A stretch of DNA of 64,000 bases from an uncultured virus (IMG/VR IMGVR_UViG_3300021139_000004) (taxonomy: Duplodnaviria; Heunggongvirae; Uroviricota; Caudoviricetes): IMG/VR virus record IMGVR_UViG_3300021139_000004; one strand, 5' to 3'. Below the pieces are notes generated by a model, which worked only from the letters and a program-made list of their open reading frames with translations, was not told the DNA's origin and ran no database searches. The position numbers were made by a program, and so were the translations under genes. This document shows positions 30,650 to 64,000 of the stretch, piece by piece (the first letter of the stretch is position 1; each line of letters begins with the position of its first letter).

Positions 30650-32124
30650 CAGACATAATAGAGATCACAAAACTAGACGAAACGTTTAACAAGATTACTT
30701 GTGAACCGGGTATAGCTTATGAACTGAACGAGTACTTTACATTCGAAGTACCCGGAGCAAAGTTCATGCCCGCTTATAAGAATAAGTTTTGGGATGGTAA
30801 GATCAGACTCTACAACGTCATGACTGGTACATTATATGCTGGTCTAAATTCTAAAGTAGAAGAATTTGCTAAGAGTAGAAACTATGAGATAGAATATAAG
30901 TCAGACTTTTCTCAAGAAGAGTTTTCATTAAAAGAAGCTCATGAATTTATAGATAGTCTTGGTATACCAAGTAAATATGAAAGAAGAGACTACCAAGATG
31001 AAGCTTTTGCTTATGCTGTTCGTAATAAACGCGCTCTTATGTTATCACCAACTGCATCAGGCAAATCATATATAATTTACTTACTTGTGAGGTACTATGA
31101 AAACTATCTTAGGGACAACGGCTTCCGCACTCTTATTATTGTGCCAACTACTTCTTTGGTGCATCAGCTTGCCAGCGATTTTATTGACTATGGTTATAGT
31201 GATCCCAGCAACATTCATAGAGTATTTGCAGGACAAGATAAGAAAACAGATCATCCTATTGTCATATCGACATGGCAATCGATTTACAAACTGGACAAAA
31301 AGTATTTTGACTCGTTTAGCGTTGTAATAGGCGATGAAGCACATTTATTTAAAGCAAAATCTCTTATATCGATTATGTCTAAGCTTAGTAGCTGTGTATA
31401 TCGTTTTGGTTTTACAGGTACTCTGGATGGATCTGAAACGAACGAACTCGTGCTTCAAGGTCTCTTCGGCAATGTTAAGAGAGTTACAACGACCTCAGAA
31501 CTGATAGACAAAAAGTATCTTTCTGATTTTAAGATCAAGATCATCGTGCTTAAGTATTCTGATCAGACGAAGCAAAGTCTAGCAAAATCAGACTATCAAG
31601 CAGAGATGGATTTTCTTGTAAGAAATCAATCACGTAATAAATTCATAAAAAATCTTACACTTTCTTTGAACGGTAATACACTTTTACTGTTTCAATTTGT
31701 TGAAAAGCATGGTAATATACTATATGACATGATTAAAAATAGCACCGATAATCCGGTGTATTATGTACATGGAGGAGTTGACGGTGATGACAGAGAAACT
31801 ATCCGTAAGATCGTGGAAAAATCAACATCCAGTATTATCATCGCTAGCTACGGGACTTTTAGTACCGGCATTAACATTCGTAATTTGCATAACGTTATAT
31901 TTGCTAGTCCTTCAAAATCCAAAATAAGAACGTTACAGTCTATAGGTCGTGGTCTACGCAAATCAGACACTAAAGATATAGCAACACTTTATGATATTTC
32001 AGATGACTTAACATGGAAGTCAAGGAAGAATTTCACTCTGCTTCATTTGGCAGAAAGAGTAAAAATCTATAACGAAGAAGGGTTTGACTACAAGATTTAT
32101 CAAGTCGCTCTAAAGGAATTATGA
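30646..32124 (+). CDS. uvsW: DNA helicase UvsW
   Basis: WDGKIRL, SPTASGKS, DEAH, QSIGRGLR. Confidence 0.95.
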   Translation: MTDIIEITKLDETFNKITCEPGIAYELNEYFTFEVPGAKFMPAYKNKFWDGKIRLYNVMTGTLYAGLNSKVEEFAKSRNYEIEYKSDFSQEEFSLKEAHEFIDSLGIPSKYERRDYQDEAFAYAVRNKRALMLSPTASGKSYIIYLLVRYYENYLRDNGFRTLIIVPTTSLVHQLASDFIDYGYSDPSNIHRVFAGQDKKTDHPIVISTWQSIYKLDKKYFDSFSVVIGDEAHLFKAKSLISIMSKLSSCVYRFGFTGTLDGSETNELVLQGLFGNVKRVTTTSELIDKKYLSDFKIKIIVLKYSDQTKQSLAKSDYQAEMDFLVRNQSRNKFIKNLTLSLNGNTLLLFQFVEKHGNILYDMIKNSTDNPVYYVHGGVDGDDRETIRKIVEKSTSSIIIASYGTFSTGINIRNLHNVIFASPSKSKIRTLQSIGRGLRKSDTKDIATLYDISDDLTWKSRKNFTLLHLAERVKIYNEEGFDYKIYQVALKEL

Positions 32125-32660
32125 TGGAAAGTAAACCAAGAAAAAAAGTTCATTATGTAAACAATAAAGATCTATATGCGGCTATGGTCGATTATAAAGA
32201 TCGAATGAATAAAGCTGCAGCAGAAGGTAAAATACTCCCTCAAGTTCCCAACTATGTTGGTACTTGTTTCCTTATGATATGTAACAAGTTAGCTACAAAA
32301 CCCAACTTTGCTAATTATTCATATAGAGAAGAGATGATAGCTGATGGTATTGAAAACTGTGTAGCTGCTGCTCATAGCTTTGATCCTGCAAAATCAAATA
32401 ATCCTTTTGCTTATTTTACTCAAATTGCATGGAATGCTTTTATTAGACGAATACAAAAAGAAAAGAAACAGTCTTATGTAAAGCATAAGAACTTTGAACA
32501 CATGAACATCTTTGGTGACTTAGCAGAAGAAGTCAACACTGGTGAAAAAATTCATAATGAATACTCGGAAGAATTGATCAGAAACTTTGAAGAAAAGCTA
32601 GTTAAAAATTCTAAGAAAACCAAAGTCGGTATCGAAAAGTTTATAGAGGATACACCATGA
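32121..32660 (+). CDS. gp55: Late sigma factor gp55
   Basis: HYVNNK, NPFAYFTQI.WNAFIRRI.KEKKQ. Confidence 0.93.
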   Translation: MMESKPRKKVHYVNNKDLYAAMVDYKDRMNKAAAEGKILPQVPNYVGTCFLMICNKLATKPNFANYSYREEMIADGIENCVAAAHSFDPAKSNNPFAYFTQIAWNAFIRRIQKEKKQSYVKHKNFEHMNIFGDLAEEVNTGEKIHNEYSEELIRNFEEKLVKNSKKTKVGIEKFIEDTP

Positions 32661-36227: not shown

Positions 36228-36704
36228 ATGGAACTTGTAAAAGCTGACGATCCCATTCTTACGACGCCGTGTCAAGATTTTGATTTTGAAAATCCTCCCT
36301 TTTGGCCCGTAGAATTTGCTAAAGAACTAGTAAAGTTTATGTACGACAACAATGGTATTGGATTGGCTGCTAATCAAGTCGGCGTTCCGTATCGTGTGTT
36401 TGCTATGAGAGGTCATCCAGAAAACTTTGTATGTTTCAATCCTCGCATTGTAGAAAAGAGTGAACAACTAATTACTCTAGAAGAAGGATGTCTATCATAT
36501 CCTGGTCTTCTAATAAAGATCAAACGACCACAACACATTCGTGTTCGTTATCGTATGCCTAATGGTGAAGTAGATACTAAGACATTTACTGGTATGTCTG
36601 CTCGTATCTTTCAACACGAGTTAGATCATCTTGATGGTAAGTTGTTCTTTGATAGAGCCAATCGCTATCATAAAGAACAAGCATTTAAAAAGTGGAAGAA
36701 ATGA
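36228..36704 (+). CDS. def: Peptide deformylase
   Basis: GIGLAANQVG, EGCLS, QHELDHLDG. Confidence 0.95.
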   Translation: MELVKADDPILTTPCQDFDFENPPFWPVEFAKELVKFMYDNNGIGLAANQVGVPYRVFAMRGHPENFVCFNPRIVEKSEQLITLEEGCLSYPGLLIKIKRPQHIRVRYRMPNGEVDTKTFTGMSARIFQHELDHLDGKLFFDRANRYHKEQAFKKWKK

Positions 36705-48141: not shown

Positions 48142-48518
48142 TGGCTTACGATTGGCGATACGAGAACAGCATCAACTTTACAAAAGATTATCAGGATCCA
48201 GATAACAATGAATACAAGTATTCTGCATGGCGTACTAATTCTTCATTGTCATATTTTCCTGATACTGTGCTCTATGCCAATGAAATGAACATGCTTCATC
48301 ATTTAGATGATAAGCTCCAGTATGACTATCTCTTCTTCTCCATCAGGCAGAAGAAGAGATTCTTCAAGAAAGACAAAAAGCACGAAAAAGATCATAACCA
48401 TGACTTAGTTCAGGGTCACTATAAATACAATAACGAGAGGACTAGAGAAGCACTCAAACTCCTAACTGACGAACAGCTCGATATTATAAGAAAAAAAGAA
48501 GAAAAAGGTGGCACATGA
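48141..48518 (+). CDS. gp62: Clamp loader small subunit gp62
   Basis: LSYFPDT..YANEMN, LQYDYL; synteny. Confidence 0.88.
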   Translation: MAYDWRYENSINFTKDYQDPDNNEYKYSAWRTNSSLSYFPDTVLYANEMNMLHHLDDKLQYDYLFFSIRQKKRFFKKDKKHEKDHNHDLVQGHYKYNNERTREALKLLTDEQLDIIRKKEEKGGT

Positions 48519-48913
48519 ACTTAATAGATTCACTAGTTGAAGTGAAAATAGCAGAAGAAGAAGACTTCCTAAAAATCAAAGAAACTCTTACTCGAATTGG
48601 GGTAGCGTCTCGTAAAGATCAAAAGTTGTATCAGTCATGTCATATCTTACACAAACAGGGTAAGTACTACATCGTACACTTTAAAGAGCTCTTTGCATTA
48701 GATGGTAAACCTTCTGACTTTACTTCAGAAGATAAGGGTAGAAGAAATACCATCGCTCAACTTCTAGAAGAGTGGGGTTTAATCAAAGTAGTAGAACCCG
48801 AAAAGATCGTAGATCCTAAAGCACCTATGAGTCAAGTTAAGATTCTACCACATAAAGAAAAAAACAATTGGATTCTTGAAGCAAAATACAATATTGGACG
48901 AAAGAAAAAATAG
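48515..48913 (+). CDS. regA: Translational repressor RegA
   Basis: FLKIKETLTRIGVAS, LYQSCHILHKQG.YYIVHFKELF. Confidence 0.96.
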   Translation: MNLIDSLVEVKIAEEEDFLKIKETLTRIGVASRKDQKLYQSCHILHKQGKYYIVHFKELFALDGKPSDFTSEDKGRRNTIAQLLEEWGLIKVVEPEKIVDPKAPMSQVKILPHKEKNNWILEAKYNIGRKKK

Positions 48914-55969: not shown

Positions 55970-56725
55970 ATGAAAAAAATAGCGCTCTTTATGAATCATC
56001 CACAGTGTTCAAGACAATGTTGTAGTGGTATAATAAAGTCGTTATCTTCTAATTACACTTTCAAAATCTTCACTAAAGAATCTAATATAATCGAAGTATT
56101 AAACAACGCTGATGCTGTCTTTTTTCCGGGCGGCATCGGCGATGCTGATTCTTACGACAAGTTTTTTCGTAGAAAAGCCGGTAATGCTGTAGCAGACTTT
56201 GTTCAAAATGGTGGAAAATATATTGGTGTCTGCATGGGTGCTTATTGGGCAGGTTCTAGATATTTCGATATCTTACAAGATGTAGATGCAGTACAATATA
56301 TCAAACGTCCTGATGCAGACATTCGTAGATCTTATGGTACAGTTGCAAACGTAATTTGGCAAAACAAATGGAAAAAAATGTTTTTCTATGATGGTTGTGC
56401 TTTGATTGGTGATCAATCAAAGTTTACGACCTACGCTCGTTATGTCAATGGTGATCCGATGGCTATCATTCAAGACAATATCGGTATCATTGGTTGCCAT
56501 CCTGAAAGTCAAGAGTTCTGGTATGATAAACCATACGAGTATATCAAACAGCATTGGCACAAGGGTGAACATAATAAACTTTTGTTACGATTTGTAAACG
56601 ATTTGATGGTGCCTTCGTCTAGCGGTTTAGGACATCGCCCTTTCACGGCGAAGATCACGGGTTCGAATCCCGTAGGCACTGCCATAATGGAGAGTGGGCA
56701 GGATGGTAATGCAGCGGTTTGCTAA
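55970..56725 (+). CDS. BPL_N / class I glutamine-amidotransferase-like protein
   Basis: FPGG.GD, YIGVCMGAYWAG, GCHPE; reading frame runs into two tRNAs. Confidence 0.8.
   Translation: MKKIALFMNHPQCSRQCCSGIIKSLSSNYTFKIFTKESNIIEVLNNADAVFFPGGIGDADSYDKFFRRKAGNAVADFVQNGGKYIGVCMGAYWAGSRYFDILQDVDAVQYIKRPDADIRRSYGTVANVIWQNKWKKMFFYDGCALIGDQSKFTTYARYVNGDPMAIIQDNIGIIGCHPESQEFWYDKPYEYIKQHWHKGEHNKLLLRFVNDLMVPSSSGLGHRPFTAKITGSNPVGTAIMESGQDGNAAVC
56608..56684 (+). tRNA. tRNA-Glu(UUC)
   Basis: Cloverleaf, CCA. Confidence 0.95.
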
Positions 56726-58068: not shown

Positions 58069-58634
58069 ATTTGTGGGCAACACCCGTAGCTTTATTTCAA
58101 CATCCAGATTATGAATCTATCAATGCAGAGATCATGCAACACGAAGAGCTAAGAGGGTGTAACTTCTTAGCTAAGAAAGATGTTTGGGATTACGTAGATC
58201 AAGTTCCAGCTCTTCGTACTCTGTATGACTGGATGCTAGATTGCACAGCGAAATACGCCGAACAATGTTTTGATTTAGAATATGATCCATCATTCTTTAT
58301 GCACGGTCATGGTTCAATCAACTACAGAGGCAAGGGTAACGAAGCGATGATGCACACACATCGCTTGACTACAGTCGTCATGACATACTACGTGAGTGTT
58401 CATGATAACTGCGGCGACATTCGCCTCTTAGATCCTCGCAGCACACTGGGATGGATAAGTAAGAATGTAGCTAAACCCTACAATCAGTATACACACAGTC
58501 CTCAAAATGGACAGCTTATCATGTTTCCCGGTTGGGTAATGCACATGGTAGCTCAGAATCAAACTGACAAAGAAAGAGTCGCTTTGACTTCCAATGTGTA
58601 TCTGAAAGAAGAGTTTAAAGATAAGGTGTATTGA
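58056..58634 (+). CDS. 2OG-Fe(II) oxygenase-like protein (TIGR02466 type)
   Basis: HTH, TYYV, LDPR, FPGWVMHMV, R. Confidence 0.8.
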   Translation: MQFMNLWATPVALFQHPDYESINAEIMQHEELRGCNFLAKKDVWDYVDQVPALRTLYDWMLDCTAKYAEQCFDLEYDPSFFMHGHGSINYRGKGNEAMMHTHRLTTVVMTYYVSVHDNCGDIRLLDPRSTLGWISKNVAKPYNQYTHSPQNGQLIMFPGWVMHMVAQNQTDKERVALTSNVYLKEEFKDKVY

Positions 58635-59104
58635 TCATGAAAAAGTTTATTGTGTTAGACGATGTACTAGACGAAGAAACAAGAATCGCTGTTCGTGATT
58701 TTAGTTATGGACCAGCACTACCGCAGAAGTGGTATGATTATGGCGTAAGCCCAATTCATGAAAAGATCATCGACGTAGCACGAGATTATTTCGATCTCAG
58801 TGATACGATTGGTTATGAGATGTGGTGTAATCAGCGTGCAGTTGGTTGGCACTACGATCATGACGAAGTAAAGTCAAAAGAAAATAATACGTTCGTGTTT
58901 CCTCCTGTAGCTATCGCTTACTATGCTGAAGTAGCTAATCTTGAAGGCGGAGACTTCGTATCAGAAACTCATCGCATAACACCGATTACGAATCGTATCA
59001 TTATGTTTTCACCCGGTCTTTATCACGGCGTGTATCCATATTCAGGTATTCGTAAAGCGATCAGTATCAATCCTTGGTCGTACAAGATTGAAAACAAGAT
59101 TTAG
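58631..59104 (+). CDS. 2OG-Fe(II) oxygenase
   Basis: WHYDHD, LEGG, NR...F...YHGV, R. Confidence 0.8.
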   Translation: MIMKKFIVLDDVLDEETRIAVRDFSYGPALPQKWYDYGVSPIHEKIIDVARDYFDLSDTIGYEMWCNQRAVGWHYDHDEVKSKENNTFVFPPVAIAYYAEVANLEGGDFVSETHRITPITNRIIMFSPGLYHGVYPYSGIRKAISINPWSYKIENKI

Positions 59105-59178
59105 CGGGTATAGCTCAGAGGTAGAGCTTCAGTTTTCCAAACTGACTGTCATCGGTTCGATCCCGATTGCCCGCTCCA
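59104..59178 (+). tRNA. tRNA-Gly(UCC), second copy
   Basis: Cloverleaf, U73, CCA. Confidence 0.95.
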
Positions 59179-59927: not shown

Positions 59928-59994
59928 ATAGAGCATGATCATTTCGTTATGTTTCTGATGATTGAAAAATCACCAATTCATAACGGAGTCTCTA

Positions 59995-61824
59995 ATGAAA
60001 AGAATTTTAGTAGCCCTACTCGGGCTATGTGCATTCGCGCATGCTGCCGTTGCACAGAACTTACCGGCCGGTTCTCTAGGTGCGGTAACTAACAATACCC
60101 CAAACACATGGCAGACATATAGCTATACGTTTACACCATCATCTTCTGGTGCAAACTATATCGGATTTGCATTTCGTCAAGATCCTGCATTCTGGACTTT
60201 CGATAACGTAACTTTGACTGCTTCTGGTTCGACTACAAATCTTTTAACGAACGGTGGATTTGATACTGGTGGCCAGTTTAGTGTAACGACAAACAACGGT
60301 GTCAGTTCGATTCAGGCTCCAACAAACTGGGGTGTATGGTATCAAAACGGAACTTATCCTGCAGCCGCAGGTACTTGGACTGATATAGGCGGAACTCATG
60401 GAGGTGTATGGTATGATGGTGCTGTTGGAACATTTGATGGTATCTATCAGGGTGTGGTTCTACAAGCAGGAACGACTTACACAATATCTTTTCAAGTTTC
60501 TGGGAACAGTACTGCTAATAGTAGTTCTATTCAACTTGGCGTATATGGTGGCGCTTGCGCAACTGTAAGTATCGCTGCAACACAGTGTACGATTCCTGCA
60601 GCTGCTGGATTTACGACGCTTGCAACACCTGCTCAGGGTGCAGCAGCTGGTAATCCTAATCCTACTCCTACAGTAGTAAGCACAGCGCCCGGACCATCTA
60701 CAGTTACACAGACGAGTGTAGCAGGAACGACTACTACTTCTGTTTCTAGCACACGCGGTGTATCTACAACAGTAGTAGCTATATCAAACGCTGCTGCTAG
60801 ATCGACAAACAACATCAACGTAACAAGAACTACTGTGACTACAGTTACTACTCCCGTAACGACAGTCACTACACATACGACTCCTATCGTCGTCTCGACT
60901 ACAACAGTTCCAACGACAGTGACTACATGGAGTGATAATTCTACGACTACTACTAACGGCACACCAATCGTAACTACTAATACGACAAATCAAGTAGTTG
61001 CATCTACTTCTGTGACTAACGATGTACAGTCAAGTACTGGTACTCAGTCACAATCAGTAAGTTCAAGTGGTGCACAAAACGCAGTCAAGTATCGTAACAA
61101 CAATCCATTCATCGTCGATGTATTGAGTCAAAAAGATGGAACATGGATTAGTCCTACAGCTAGCTACTACAAGACAGTAGGAAGTATGGCTGCTGGTGGC
61201 GTATCACTCGGTTATCAGTGGACAGTCGAAAACAACTCGTTCGGTGTAGCGTTTGCTTACAACAACGCTAAGAGTGGCGGATTAGTCGGTAGCGACGTGC
61301 AAGCATCAACGTATGACGGCAACGTCTATGCTTTAAGCAAGCAAGAAGATGTTTGGATCAAGGGCACTGTAGGTTACGGCTACGGCGACTACACAACCAA
61401 CACATCGATTCCGCTGTTCGCTCTCTATAATTCTGGTAAGATCAAACAGAAGACATATTATGCAGATCTAACTTTGTATAGTGCTGCAGACTATGCAGGC
61501 TTTCGTCCACTCATCGGTGCAACAATCGTAAAATCTCAGATCGATTCTACTTCTGTCGGTACACCACTCTTAGATACGACAAGCGGCGTATCATCGAGCA
61601 CGACTGTAAATCCATATATCGGAGTCAGATATGACTTTACTGACAACGTGGGTATTGAAACAAGAGTGACACAGACAAAAGATTTCAAGACAGTCGGTGG
61701 TATACGAGCAGTTGCCAAGACTGAAATCTATGATGGTGTATTCTTGGATGCTGGAGTCGGATTTGATAAGGGCAACGGTTACACAGCAGCTGCTGGTACC
61801 ATAGGTCTTAAGATCGCTTTTTAG
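59995..61824 (+). CDS. Autotransporter-like outer-membrane protein
   Basis: Signal peptide, beta-sandwich passenger, Thr/Val-rich stalk, amphipathic beta-strands, terminal Phe. Confidence 0.7.
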   Translation: MKRILVALLGLCAFAHAAVAQNLPAGSLGAVTNNTPNTWQTYSYTFTPSSSGANYIGFAFRQDPAFWTFDNVTLTASGSTTNLLTNGGFDTGGQFSVTTNNGVSSIQAPTNWGVWYQNGTYPAAAGTWTDIGGTHGGVWYDGAVGTFDGIYQGVVLQAGTTYTISFQVSGNSTANSSSIQLGVYGGACATVSIAATQCTIPAAAGFTTLATPAQGAAAGNPNPTPTVVSTAPGPSTVTQTSVAGTTTTSVSSTRGVSTTVVAISNAAARSTNNINVTRTTVTTVTTPVTTVTTHTTPIVVSTTTVPTTVTTWSDNSTTTTNGTPIVTTNTTNQVVASTSVTNDVQSSTGTQSQSVSSSGAQNAVKYRNNNPFIVDVLSQKDGTWISPTASYYKTVGSMAAGGVSLGYQWTVENNSFGVAFAYNNAKSGGLVGSDVQASTYDGNVYALSKQEDVWIKGTVGYGYGDYTTNTSIPLFALYNSGKIKQKTYYADLTLYSAADYAGFRPLIGATIVKSQIDSTSVGTPLLDTTSGVSSSTTVNPYIGVRYDFTDNVGIETRVTQTKDFKTVGGIRAVAKTEIYDGVFLDAGVGFDKGNGYTAAAGTIGLKIAF

Positions 61825-61853
61825 TGTACAAACTCTCTCCATCGTGGTATAAT
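61825..61853 (+). promoter_or_regulatory. Early promoter TGTACA-N17-TATAAT inside an RBS-sequestering inverted repeat
   Basis: CTCTCTCCATC (61833-43) / GATGGAGAGAG (61862-72). Confidence 0.7.
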
Positions 61854-61874
61854 CTTTACATGATGGAGAGAGAA

Positions 61875-62102
61875 ATGCAAGTTATTCAGTTTCCCCTACA
61901 ACAGCGTAACGCTACTATCGTCAACGGTGTGGCTACTCAGAATCCGCATAATCGTGCCAAGTATCTCAATCTGATCGAACGATTCTTGCTTCCTGATGAC
62001 TATCAGGAAATCTTGAACGCTATCGAACATCCATTACTCTATGCTGCTTTGGAGCCTCAACTCCAGAGGATCTTAGACTATTACCTCAGTTACGATCAGT
62101 GA
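61875..62102 (+). CDS. Hypothetical protein
   Basis: RBS GGAG. Confidence 0.6.
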   Translation: MQVIQFPLQQRNATIVNGVATQNPHNRAKYLNLIERFLLPDDYQEILNAIEHPLLYAALEPQLQRILDYYLSYDQ

Positions 62103-62105
62103 TCG

Positions 62106-62113
62106 TATAAATA
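62106..62113 (+). promoter_or_regulatory. Late promoter TATAAATA
   Basis: Exact consensus upstream of the ArfA-like ORF and tRNA-Lys. Confidence 0.7.
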
Positions 62114-62137
62114 ATCTTACTTTAACAAAGGTGCGCT

Positions 62138-62266
62138 ATGACTAAGCAGGTTACAATTCGTAATCCAATCGCTAAGGCTCTTCAGAGCCAGTCTTTCCGC
62201 GCGCGTATCGTTGCCCCTAAACGTGGCAAGGGTTCATACAAACGTCAGAGCTTCAAAAAGTTCTGA
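62138..62266 (+). CDS. ArfA-like alternative ribosome-rescue factor, 42 aa (not in ORF track)
   Basis: MTKQVTIRNPIAKALQSQSFRARIVAPKRGKGSYKRQSFKKF; RBS AAAGGT. Confidence 0.7.
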   Translation: MTKQVTIRNPIAKALQSQSFRARIVAPKRGKGSYKRQSFKKF

Positions 62267-62273
62267 GGTTATT

Positions 62274-62350
62274 GGATCCTTAGCTCAGTAGGTTAGAGCA
62301 GCGGTCTTTTAAACCGCAGGTCCTGGGTTCGAATCCCAGAGGATCTACCA
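62274..62350 (+). tRNA. tRNA-Lys(UUU)
   Basis: Cloverleaf, CCA. Confidence 0.96.
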
Positions 62351-62372
62351 ACTATTTTGTAGGATTTTTATT

Positions 62373-62468
62373 ATGAATTTACGTGAATTACTATGGGTGA
62401 TTGTTATGTGTAATTCCATAGCTATCGCGGCGTCAGTGATCGTCGTGAGTTGGAATTTTTGGAAGTGA
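62373..62468 (+). CDS. Possible 31-aa membrane peptide
   Basis: RBS AGGA; one hydrophobic helix. Confidence 0.4.
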   Translation: MNLRELLWVIVMCNSIAIAASVIVVSWNFWK

Positions 62469-62496
62469 ATATCGTTAACAACTAAGGAGCAATAAA

Positions 62497-63054
62497 ATGC
62501 AAAAGACTATCGTATCGGCGCTCGCTCTTCTTGCGTCGACAGCAGTGGCTTCGGCTACTGATCTGCCAAGCAAGACGAAAGCACCTGCTGCACCAGTCGC
62601 TGCACAGTCTTCAACAGACTTCTATGCTGGCGTTAATGCAGGCGGTGACTTCGATAAAGCACGCGTCTATTCTGGTGGTGCTGTTGCTGGCTGGAACGTC
62701 CTTCCGTTCCTCGCAGTAGAAGGTACATACGACCTTGATCGTCCAAGCGACAAGATTAAGGGTGCTTCAAACTGGCAGAACACTGTCGGCGTGAACGCTG
62801 TACCACAGTACAAGATTCCCGGTCAAGACGTTACCGTGTATGCACTCGGTGGTGTTGGTTACCGTTGGAATAGTGTAGCTACCGTTGCGGATCATTCCGT
62901 TTATAACTTCGGTGCTGGCGCTAAGTATGAGTTCGCTAAGAATCTCGAACTCGACGGTCGTTATCGTCGCATCGACGCTATCGAAAGCAAGTATCGCACG
63001 ACTGCAAATCCTGCAGAAGACCGTGCAACACTTGGTGTAAACTACAAGTTCTAA
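62497..63054 (+). CDS. Omp25/Omp31/RopB-like outer-membrane beta-barrel protein
   Basis: Signal peptide plus ATDLPSKTKAPAAP, FYAGVNAG, terminal GVNYKF. Confidence 0.85.
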   Translation: MQKTIVSALALLASTAVASATDLPSKTKAPAAPVAAQSSTDFYAGVNAGGDFDKARVYSGGAVAGWNVLPFLAVEGTYDLDRPSDKIKGASNWQNTVGVNAVPQYKIPGQDVTVYALGGVGYRWNSVATVADHSVYNFGAGAKYEFAKNLELDGRYRRIDAIESKYRTTANPAEDRATLGVNYKF

Positions 63055-63479
63055 TGATGTACGAGGTTAGAAACGCTGTAAGCGATGACCTCAATGACAT
63101 TATAAGAATAGAACAAACGTTTGGCGCAGAGGCATTCTCAAAGAGAACTCTGCGCCAACAACTAAAAAATACAATCGTCTTAAAAGACGAAGAAGTTCTC
63201 GGATACTGTATCTTCTTCAAATTCAAACACTCAGCAAGAATATACAGCATCGCTGTCGATGAAAATCATCGACGCAAGGGTCTTGGTAAGATACTTCTCA
63301 AAGAAGTCGAGAATCGTTGCCAAGAAATGGACATTGCCAAGCTTACGCTTGAAGTTGCCATCGATAACATAGCAGCACAACACGTGTATTCTCTTATGGG
63401 ATATACCAAGATCAAAGATCTATCAGACTACTATGATCTTGGTAGACACGCTATCAAATTATCCAAGAATCTAAAATAA
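63054..63479 (+). CDS. RimI-like GNAT acetyltransferase
   Basis: IYSIAV...RRKGLGK.LL, LEV..DN.AA...Y...GY, YY. Confidence 0.85.
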   Translation: MMYEVRNAVSDDLNDIIRIEQTFGAEAFSKRTLRQQLKNTIVLKDEEVLGYCIFFKFKHSARIYSIAVDENHRRKGLGKILLKEVENRCQEMDIAKLTLEVAIDNIAAQHVYSLMGYTKIKDLSDYYDLGRHAIKLSKNLK

Positions 63480-63482
63480 CTG

Positions 63483-63510
63483 TTTACTTTTCTAGCCATC
63501 TTGATATAAT
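63483..63510 (+). promoter_or_regulatory. Early promoter TTTACT-N16-TATAAT
   Basis: Preceded by G (GTTTAC, T4-like -35). Confidence 0.6.
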
Positions 63511-63539
63511 AGTCATATTGGTTGAGAGGAGTCTTTGTA

Positions 63540-63764
63540 ATGTGGACAGACGATGACATCATCGAATATGAAGCTGCTTTGACTACGCAGGAACGTTTGA
63601 CTCTAGATGCTATGAAGCAGTTCAAAGATTTTGAACGAGTTAAAAACTACGTAGCACGGATGACACATGGTAACTATGATCCACACTACGTGGCTTCGAT
63701 CTACTACAATCCAGACGCTTACTTCGATGCGTCTGACTTGGAGATATATAATGAACACATTTAA
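63540..63764 (+). CDS. Hypothetical protein
   Basis: RBS GAGGAG. Confidence 0.6.
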   Translation: MWTDDDIIEYEAALTTQERLTLDAMKQFKDFERVKNYVARMTHGNYDPHYVASIYYNPDAYFDASDLEIYNEHI

Positions 63765-64000
63765 TCTAGCACTGACAAAAAACTTTACAAAGTTGACACT
63801 CATTACGATTGCATCTTTGTCTAGCACTCTCGGTCTTCGAACTGAGATGGCTATCATCTTTGGCGATATCGGTCTAGCAACGTGGCTTGCTATTGGCTGG
63901 GTATTTGTCATCATCATCGTCTTGGCTTACTACAAGTCAAAGCAAGACGTCGAGTTGATCTCTTTTCGTGAATATGAAAAAAATCGTGTATTGGCTGGTT
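63751..64000 (+). CDS. Membrane protein, 3'-truncated by the window end
   Basis: RBS GGAG; open to the end; hydrophobic segments. Confidence 0.55.
   Translation, partial: MNTFNLALTKNFTKLTLITIASLSSTLGLRTEMAIIFGDIGLATWLAIGWVFVIIIVLAYYKSKQDVELISFREYEKNRVLAG

Follow-up and report, generated by a model that had tools for sequence, protein, structure and literature searches.

The region 62106..62350 of a 64,000-nucleotide stretch of DNA (hereafter the window) from the uncultured virus IMGVR_UViG_3300021139_000004 carries, all on the + strand, a short gene of the ArfA ribosome-rescue family, preceded by a promoter-like motif, closed by a stem-loop and followed within a few nucleotides by a tRNA gene. 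The arfA open reading frame (ORF), located at 62138..62266, comprises 42 codons, ends at a TGA stop (62264-62266) and encodes a product of 42 amino acids, MTKQVTIRNPIAKALQSQSFRARIVAPKRGKGSYKRQSFKKF. The ribosome-binding site AAAGGTG (62127..62133) can be read in the sequence 4 nucleotides before the ATG, and is kept in relatives as AAAGGTG or GGAGGTG. Seven nucleotides separate the TGA from the start of a gene for tRNA-Lys(UUU) with an encoded CCA (62274..62350), identified with ARAGORN and matching Rfam RF00005 with 75 bits. An earlier reading based on the nucleotide sequence only (the sequence-only reading) had proposed this arrangement, and the follow-up confirmed the 42-codon ORF, whose peptide is identical to the one quoted there, its ribosome-binding site, its own stop without a hydrophobic tail, and its position directly upstream of tRNA-Lys(UUU).

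Against the Pfam ArfA profile (PF03889), the hidden Markov model check that the sequence-only reading had suggested, the product scored 30.7 bits, above the curated cut-off of 25.5 (E = 2.1e-7), with residues 12-38 aligned on positions 15-41 of the 44 in the profile; the precomputed Pfam assignment of its protein cluster is likewise PF03889. Sequence matches in the PDB below E = 0.1 numbered six, all of them chains of Escherichia coli ArfA (E 0.026-0.076), among which are the ribosome-bound structures 5MGP, 5MDV, 5U4I, 5H5U and 7OJ0, and the alignment, which is ungapped, places phage residues 8-37 on ArfA residues 13-42 of a 72-amino-acid chain. The proposed likeness to ArfA was thus upheld by both searches. 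In PHROGs, two weak families of unknown function were retrieved.

The same ORF is present on four IMG/VR contigs and one metagenome contig, with 78-100% identity, and a wider scan added one more ORF at 74% identity as well as a sister group at 58-69%. Scanning viral contigs with a DNA pattern revealed no carriers beyond the four contigs already obtained by protein search, and a pattern scan of metagenomes added one contig, nearly identical to L010. Among six pairs compared, dN/dS ranged between 0.24 and 0.43 in the five deeper ones, the value of 0.88 for L009 versus L010 being uninformative for an almost identical pair; the arfA ORF is under purifying selection. Because it exceeds the Pfam ArfA cut-off, is kept in relatives from IMG/VR and from metagenomes, and shows these dN/dS values, the ORF is more than a product of chance. 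A 218-nucleotide contig from an RNA library spans 62098-62315 with zero differences, bridging the ORF and the tRNA.

As described in the passages of a published review that deal with ArfA (PMC8012679), no more than 46-48 residues of the E. coli protein are ordered on the ribosome, and it can do without the last 17-18 of its 72 residues. At the decoding centre, residues 15-24 adopt a short helix, RF2 is held by F25 and the strand Q27-E30, and the C-terminus sits in the mRNA channel, the substrate being a ribosome in which this channel is empty (PMC8012679). The RF2-contact segment is kept in the sequence of the phage protein, with F20 and R21 corresponding to F25 and R26, A22-R23-I24-V25 corresponding to Q27-R28-V29-E30, and I24 being similar to V29. 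The channel tail is kept as well, since G30-K-G-S-Y34 equals E. coli G35-Y39 and R36 equals R41; G30, G32, S33, Y34, K35 and R36 are invariant across 17 short forms. Overall, the 42 phage residues correspond to ArfA residues 6-47, which are, as judged by this alignment, those of the ordered active core of E. coli ArfA. Eight residues precede the conserved N in the phage protein, compared with 13 in E. coli, and by the same comparison the phage protein is an ArfA-family member with a reduced N-terminal part.

The locus is best explained as a phage gene for a minimal ArfA-type ribosome-rescue factor, a reading to which we assign a probability of about 0.6, and arfA and tRNA-Lys(UUU) probably share a single transcript. 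By homology, once a ribosome has stalled at the 3' end of a truncated message, its empty mRNA channel would take up the basic KGKGSY-R tail, the segment F-R-x-R-I-V would add a beta-strand to RF2, and RF2 would then hydrolyse the peptidyl-tRNA, freeing ribosomes without ssrA-tagging in an infected cell that holds many broken mRNAs from infection and RNA processing. For the protein we infer ribosome binding, RF2 dependence and rescue activity, and for the gene its expression timing and its co-transcription with the tRNA. No SmpB or RF-1-domain gene was found in a complete relative (G604 in IMG/VR, 167,756 bp with direct terminal repeats), so that ArfA would be the only recognisable rescue factor of the phage.

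Several observations weigh against a working rescue factor. Compared pairwise, E. coli ArfA is matched only weakly (E = 0.026), and an NCBIfam search with the 42-amino-acid protein returned no family. In E. coli ArfA, the A18T substitution blocks RF2 activation while ribosome binding and RF2 recruitment are retained (PMC8012679); the A18 position is occupied by K13 in the phage protein, and by K or R in SAR11 and phage forms. Moreover, 5 residues are missing from the N-terminal segment that orders with the RF2 switch loop, and the alignment to the Pfam profile leaves positions 1-14 of the latter uncovered. A complex prediction of the 42-amino-acid protein with a SAR11 RF2 (L056:1063-2040:-), run without controls, speaks neither for nor against RF2 binding, with scores of 0.13 and 0.19 versus a mark of 0.32. 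Published phage ArfA proteins are annotations only: g10 of Citromicrobium phage vB_CbaS-RXM is described as ArfA (PMC8953757), and gp30 of Pelagibacter phage HTVC027P, reported to be highly expressed both early and late, as an ArfA-domain protein (PMC12753301). Lastly, contigs from RNA libraries may represent carried-over DNA, and the contig bridging arfA and the tRNA does not prove one transcript.

The sequence-only reading had presented the gene as hidden, a description that did not hold, as JGI already names a member of the protein cluster 'stalled ribosome alternative rescue factor ArfA'; the ArfA family call for the phage protein is not new as annotation. A tblastn search of cultured phages retrieved 19 mostly weak records with E values of up to 10, 17 of them phages of Alphaproteobacteria and the other two Microcystis phage. 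The ORFs from phages Cr30, RXM, CRP-212, HTVC027P and XM05 encode 41-60 amino acids, have their own stops and share a common motif. The 41-amino-acid ArfA-like ORF of Roseobacter phage CRP-212 (L003:1492-1617) lies in another frame inside the annotated 3.6-kb coding sequence of gp38, where either the annotation or the overlap is in doubt. A profile built from the 17 short forms matched 833 cluster representatives, mostly of 35-100 amino acids, at E<=1e-3, of which 73 reached E<=1e-10. One match (L117:8113-8259, E 8.5e-10) retains the NPIAKDL helix motif and has the GKGSY tail replaced by SKLRKPPKHKERY; judged on these motifs, it may be a divergent branch of the ArfA family.

Short ArfA genes are also borne on bacterial chromosomes. 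A peptide-pattern scan, with one genome per species, yielded 31 loci, comprising 18 from Pelagibacter or other Pelagibacterales, 5 from other alphaproteobacterial or proteobacterial metagenome-assembled genomes (MAGs) and 8 from Gammaproteobacteria. The SAR11 ORFs encode 37-43 amino acids with their own stop in 16 of the 18 loci, no start codon being found in the other two, and the gammaproteobacterial ORFs encode 60-81. SAR11 chromosomal short loci are to be found among L012-L033 (e.g. L017:3001-3123). Identity to the window protein over a 30-residue core amounted to 16-20 residues in SAR11, 16-17 in other alphaproteobacterial, 12-17 in cultured alphaproteobacterial-phage and 13-14 in gammaproteobacterial forms, a ranking biased by the choice of the bacterial loci through the pattern. 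In a complete Pelagibacter chromosome, the genes flanking arfA encode a response regulator and a PfkB kinase, and nth and dapB are close by; this arfA ORF and the five other SAR11 ORFs tested all pass the Pfam cut-off, and the RF2 of the same genome has the SPF motif. The SAR11 protein WP_435090250.1 is already named ArfA by NCBI.

At E<=1e-3, PF03889 was matched in 103 of 201 sampled Pelagibacterales (102 of 200 without the unpublished genome G512), 49 of them over the cut-off; at the same E-value limit, a sample of 401 Alphaproteobacteria contained 10 genomes with a match, 8 of which exceeded the cut-off. A published survey based on nucleotide profiles lists no arfA for any of its 2,376 genomes of Alphaproteobacteria (PMC11633108, Table 1), and a review confines ArfA to some beta- and gammaproteobacteria. 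The Pelagibacterales counts conflict with both. The statement in the sequence-only reading that ArfA is described mainly in beta- and gammaproteobacteria therefore agrees with the reviews, but the gene is chromosomal in about half of the sampled Pelagibacterales.

The link with tRNA-Lys(UUU) has a narrower distribution. In 4 of 4 close relatives the tRNA starts 6-7 nucleotides past the arfA stop, and it lies 6-24 nucleotides 3' of arfA in 9 of 80 viral ArfA loci (L137-L142, L147, L162 and L163), the other 71 having no tRNA within up to 1.5 kb on each side. Similarly, no tRNA was found nearby in any of 7 cultured-phage or 31 bacterial ArfA loci. The nine linked loci form one clade with its sister group, share the motif AKALQS...GKGSYKR, and carry varying numbers of tRNAs (1, 2, 4 or 8 per locus). 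Given these counts, the arfA-tRNA-Lys pair is a stable unit of one phage lineage and not a property of the family. The adjacency is best read, from the arrangement of these loci, as a small operon that one clade of phages has conserved, rather than as a demonstrated functional pair. No terminator-like site was found on the + strand in 61500-63600.

The arfA stop codon is embedded in a stem-loop at 62241..62270 (+ strand), consisting of a 9-bp core (62245-62253/62258-62266) with three outer pairs, so that the TGA lies in the 3' arm. The fold of 62120-62273 has a free energy of -49.2 kcal/mol (z -4.33), and none of 200 shuffles was as stable. In five aligned sequences all 45 cells of the stem core are paired. 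Locus L011 has six changed arm positions with every pair kept, through two double-sided and two one-sided changes; this covariation, which stems from a single lineage, was reached by 18 of 500 column shuffles. The sister group has a stem of different sequence, in which R-S/C codons are paired with A-A codons. In L147 and L162 this stem extends to the first base of the stop, in L142 it ends 1 nucleotide before the stop, and in L140 it is weaker; z ranges from -1.8 to -4.7 in seven of eight sister-group folds. The ArfA proteins of this clade (L142, L147, L162, L163) end in -VAA or -IAA, the Ala-Ala codons constituting the 3' arm of the stem, and such ends resemble the C-terminal residues of the ssrA degradation tag.

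Long stems span the arfA stop in Pseudoalteromonas and Algibacillus, and a strong stem encloses it in Erythrobacter phage XM05, whereas folds of most SAR11 loci and of phages Cr30 and HTVC027P showed nothing significant at that position. A Rhodospirillales MAG (L030:2977-3120) presents the classical non-stop design, with a strong stem and a U-run in frame just before the arfA stop, and in L016 and L032 the arfA frame runs on for 40-50 more codons. In E. coli, according to the review passages cited above, the arfA stem-loop leads to non-stop mRNA through termination or RNase III cleavage (PMC8012679). The stem in the window is followed by no U-tract, and no terminator was flagged. As it is also short, the simplest reading is that it protects the mRNA 3' end after RNase P frees the tRNA, or insulates the folding of the tRNA. 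The sequence-only reading had considered the factor constitutively active, which is not established: a conserved stem encloses the stop where bacterial arfA has its regulatory stem-loop, so that regulation is possible and constitutive activity unproven. The stop-enclosing stem-loop is the one new detail of the locus.

Upstream of the gene, the motif TATAAATA (62106..62113, + strand) resembles a T4 late promoter and ends 24 nucleotides before the ATG; a promoter function would follow from this resemblance. It occurs 32-35 nucleotides before the ATG in three lineages and is present in L008, L009, L010 and L047. The late promoter claimed in the sequence-only reading is overstated: the motif is kept in three lineages, but it is absent from L011, L140 and L141 and replaced in L142, L147 and L162 by sigma-70-like hexamers, as read by eye. 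Within the window, TATAAATA is not enriched (7 copies versus 5.58 expected, with 31 of 100 shuffles reaching 7), and all 7 copies lie 3-87 nucleotides upstream of the start of an ORF on the same strand. A sigma-70-region-2 protein (32121-32657) and a gp45-type clamp are both encoded in the window, and a gp55-type sigma factor and the gp45 clamp are parts used by T4 for late transcription. A sigma-70-like site at 61825-61853 points to possible read-through from the upstream ORF.

Two other genes of the window, both of them real, meet a tRNA without a complete stop codon. ORF A (55970-56725), which is glutamine-amidotransferase-like and has thousands of relatives, contains no stop before tRNA-Glu (56608-56684), and in all three lineages (the window, L049 and L050) its first stop is met 4-39 codons into the tRNA. 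In ORF B (58631-59104), the last base of the TAG is the first base of tRNA-Gly (59104-59178). In two other lineages, ORF A and ORF B reach to 0-1 nucleotides from the tRNA without a stop, with first stops 4-7 codons inside it. Most relatives of ORF A have their own stop two or three residues later; a WRVG end occurs in 15 of 120 listed relatives, and in L069 and L089 it is the translated 5' end of tRNA-Ser(GCU). Among the relatives of ORF B, L052 and L053 have no stop before the tRNA, and the coding sequence of Synechococcus phage L054 (383-889) ends there with its own stop.

These joints could be tied to arfA if the promoter-arfA-hairpin-tRNA-Lys unit were gated by non-stop mRNA arising from tRNA processing, and served tRNA-punctuated, stop-less messages. 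RNase P would cut at the 5' end of tRNA-Lys, 7 nucleotides past the stop, the hairpin over the stop would then be cleaved or nibbled, and some arfA mRNA would lose its stop, with untagged ArfA building up, as it does in E. coli, only once trans-translation is saturated; clients would include phage genes that run stop-less into tRNAs, giving untagged protein. Such a unit would be a bacterial-virus counterpart of mitochondrial tRNA punctuation equipped with a dedicated rescue factor; no printed link of ArfA and non-stop mRNA to the processing of phage tRNAs came up in a literature search. Consistent with the proposal are the conserved stem around the arfA stop and the different-sequence stem of the sister clade, the stems or terminators over the ORF end in the bacterial loci L030, L035, L038, L040 and L041 and in phage XM05, the non-stop mRNA yielded by the E. 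coli stem-loop (PMC8012679), and the joints that both ORF A and ORF B form in each of the three lineages. Across 80 viral loci of ORF A relatives, ArfA-profile matches occur at 2 of 4 stop-less versus 1 of 76 other loci (Fisher p 0.0056), and at 3 of 7 loci with at least five tRNAs versus 0 of 73 others, but both ArfA-positive stop-less loci belong to one clade, so that the Fisher values overstate independence. The support from stop-less joints is further lowered because L069 and L089, also stop-less, have no ArfA in 6.5-10 kb of downstream DNA. Moreover, arfA keeps its stop intact, the stem of only 9-12 bp is short for RNase III and is followed by neither a U-tract nor a flagged terminator, unprocessed transcripts of the stop-less genes would terminate 4-39 codons inside the tRNA, and a plain hairpin that protects the 3' end or insulates the tRNA accounts for the stem equally well. 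A gated unit of this kind is considered unlikely.

The sequence-only reading had instead linked ArfA and the tRNA as a counter-defence pair, in which the tRNA would replace host tRNA-Lys cut by PrrC- or PARIS-type nucleases, of which tRNA-Lys(UUU) is the target, and ArfA would clear the stalled ribosomes. The two genes do occur together in 9 of 9 loci of a clade diverging to about 58% protein identity and with differing tRNA neighbourhoods, always with tRNA-Lys(UUU) as the partner, and in the window the main tRNA block ends about 5.4 kb away from the pair, the nearest other tRNA gene (tRNA-Gly 59104-59178) being about 3 kb away. However, ArfA acts on ribosomes with an empty channel and not on those starved of tRNA in mid-message, so that additional mRNA cleavage must be assumed; nor does it need a tRNA, none being nearby in 71 of 80 viral, 7 of 7 cultured-phage and 31 of 31 bacterial loci. 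A set of 25 tRNAs including tRNA-Lys(CUU) is as expected for codon supply, and annotation of the neighbouring genes identified no defence or anti-defence gene beside the pair. Being without support beyond synteny, the counter-defence pair is quite improbable. Equally improbable is an ArfA-derived peptide with another effect, which would occupy the mRNA channel or RF2 and thereby block host trans-translation or modulate termination. The channel tail and the RF2-strand segment are kept although K13 stands at the A18 position and the N-terminus is shorter, and E. coli ArfA(A18T) binds and recruits RF2 without activating it (PMC8012679). An inhibitor is nevertheless hard to explain, since the same K/R and short N-terminus recur in chromosomal SAR11 genes, which about half of the sampled genomes carry amid housekeeping genes.

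The window as a whole is part of a T4-like myovirus genome. Its structural genes encode a tail sheath, portal, major head protein, large terminase, gp15-like and gp19-like proteins and a prohead protease, and its replication and recombination genes encode UvsY, gp46/47-like nuclease subunits, and the clamp with its clamp loader; several 2-oxoglutarate (2OG)-Fe(II) oxygenases are also present. Genes related to expression code for a peptide deformylase, a RegA translational repressor and the sigma-70-region-2 (gp55-like) protein (36228-36701, 48515-48910 and 32121-32657), and ARAGORN predicted 25 tRNA genes, the tRNA-Lys(CUU) gene being in the main block. A megablast search of cultured phages with 60000-64000 gave no match; the best cultured relatives by capsid protein, with 62-67% identity, are myoviruses of Stenotrophomonas, Sinorhizobium, Pelagibacter, Methylophilales and Synechococcus. 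The nearest virus record (30 kb, 18% complete) contained no ArfA match.

The gene at 59962-61824 encodes a 620-amino-acid Thr/Ser-rich protein with a signal-peptide-like start. The genes at 59962-61824, 62497-63054 and 63054-63479 include one for an outer-membrane beta-barrel protein of 185 amino acids (PF13505, OmpA-like), which had no match among plasmids, and one for a GNAT acetyltransferase. In four lake-water metatranscriptome libraries, exact-match contigs cover parts of 61889-63108, the beta-barrel gene among them; the contig-free parts of 61000-63500 in these libraries are uninformative on expression.

Should the phage ArfA work as a rescue factor, phages of Alphaproteobacteria would bring their own RF2-dependent means of freeing ribosomes. 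The frequency of short, self-terminated ArfA genes in SAR11 chromosomes means that rescue of the ArfA type may be important to bacteria that are among the most abundant on the planet. With 42 residues that equal the ordered core of E. coli ArfA, the protein would be a convenient minimal construct to define which parts of ArfA activate RF2. In addition, the stop-enclosing hairpin beside a tRNA offers a testable case of coupling between tRNA processing and mRNA fate in phage tRNA operons.

Compared with known systems, the window shares with mitochondrial tRNA punctuation the arrival of ORF A and ORF B at a tRNA 5' end without a complete stop, whereas arfA itself keeps its stop. ArfT of Francisella, a small basic protein that recruits a release factor to non-stop ribosomes, is a functional analogue. 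BrfA of Bacillus subtilis is another, being described in a figure legend of the review as small and basic and as bringing a release factor to non-stop ribosomes (PMC8012679). E. coli ArfA (YhdL) has in common with the phage protein the GKGSY-R tail, the F-R-x-R strand segment and an 11-residue spacing from N to F, but it is 72 amino acids long instead of 42, and carries the gamma-type helix motif DNAL-A where the phage protein has NP[IV]AK-L; the phage gene differs further in its own stop without a hydrophobic tail, in being phage-borne and in its adjoining tRNA gene. RXM g10 and HTVC027P gp30 are likewise small ArfA-family proteins with their own stops from phages of Alphaproteobacteria, but they reach 58-60 amino acids, match 12-15 of the 30 core residues and have no tRNA within 1.5 kb. 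The SAR11 ArfA genes differ in being bacterial, in lying among housekeeping genes with no tRNA within 3 kb, and in having mostly no significant stem at the stop. In the protein itself they are alike, with 37-43 amino acids, an own stop, no hydrophobic tail and the motifs NP-I-A-K/R-x-L and PKKGKGSYKR, and their core, with 16-20 of 30 residues identical, is the closest to that of the window protein, in a pattern-chosen set whose ranking is biased.

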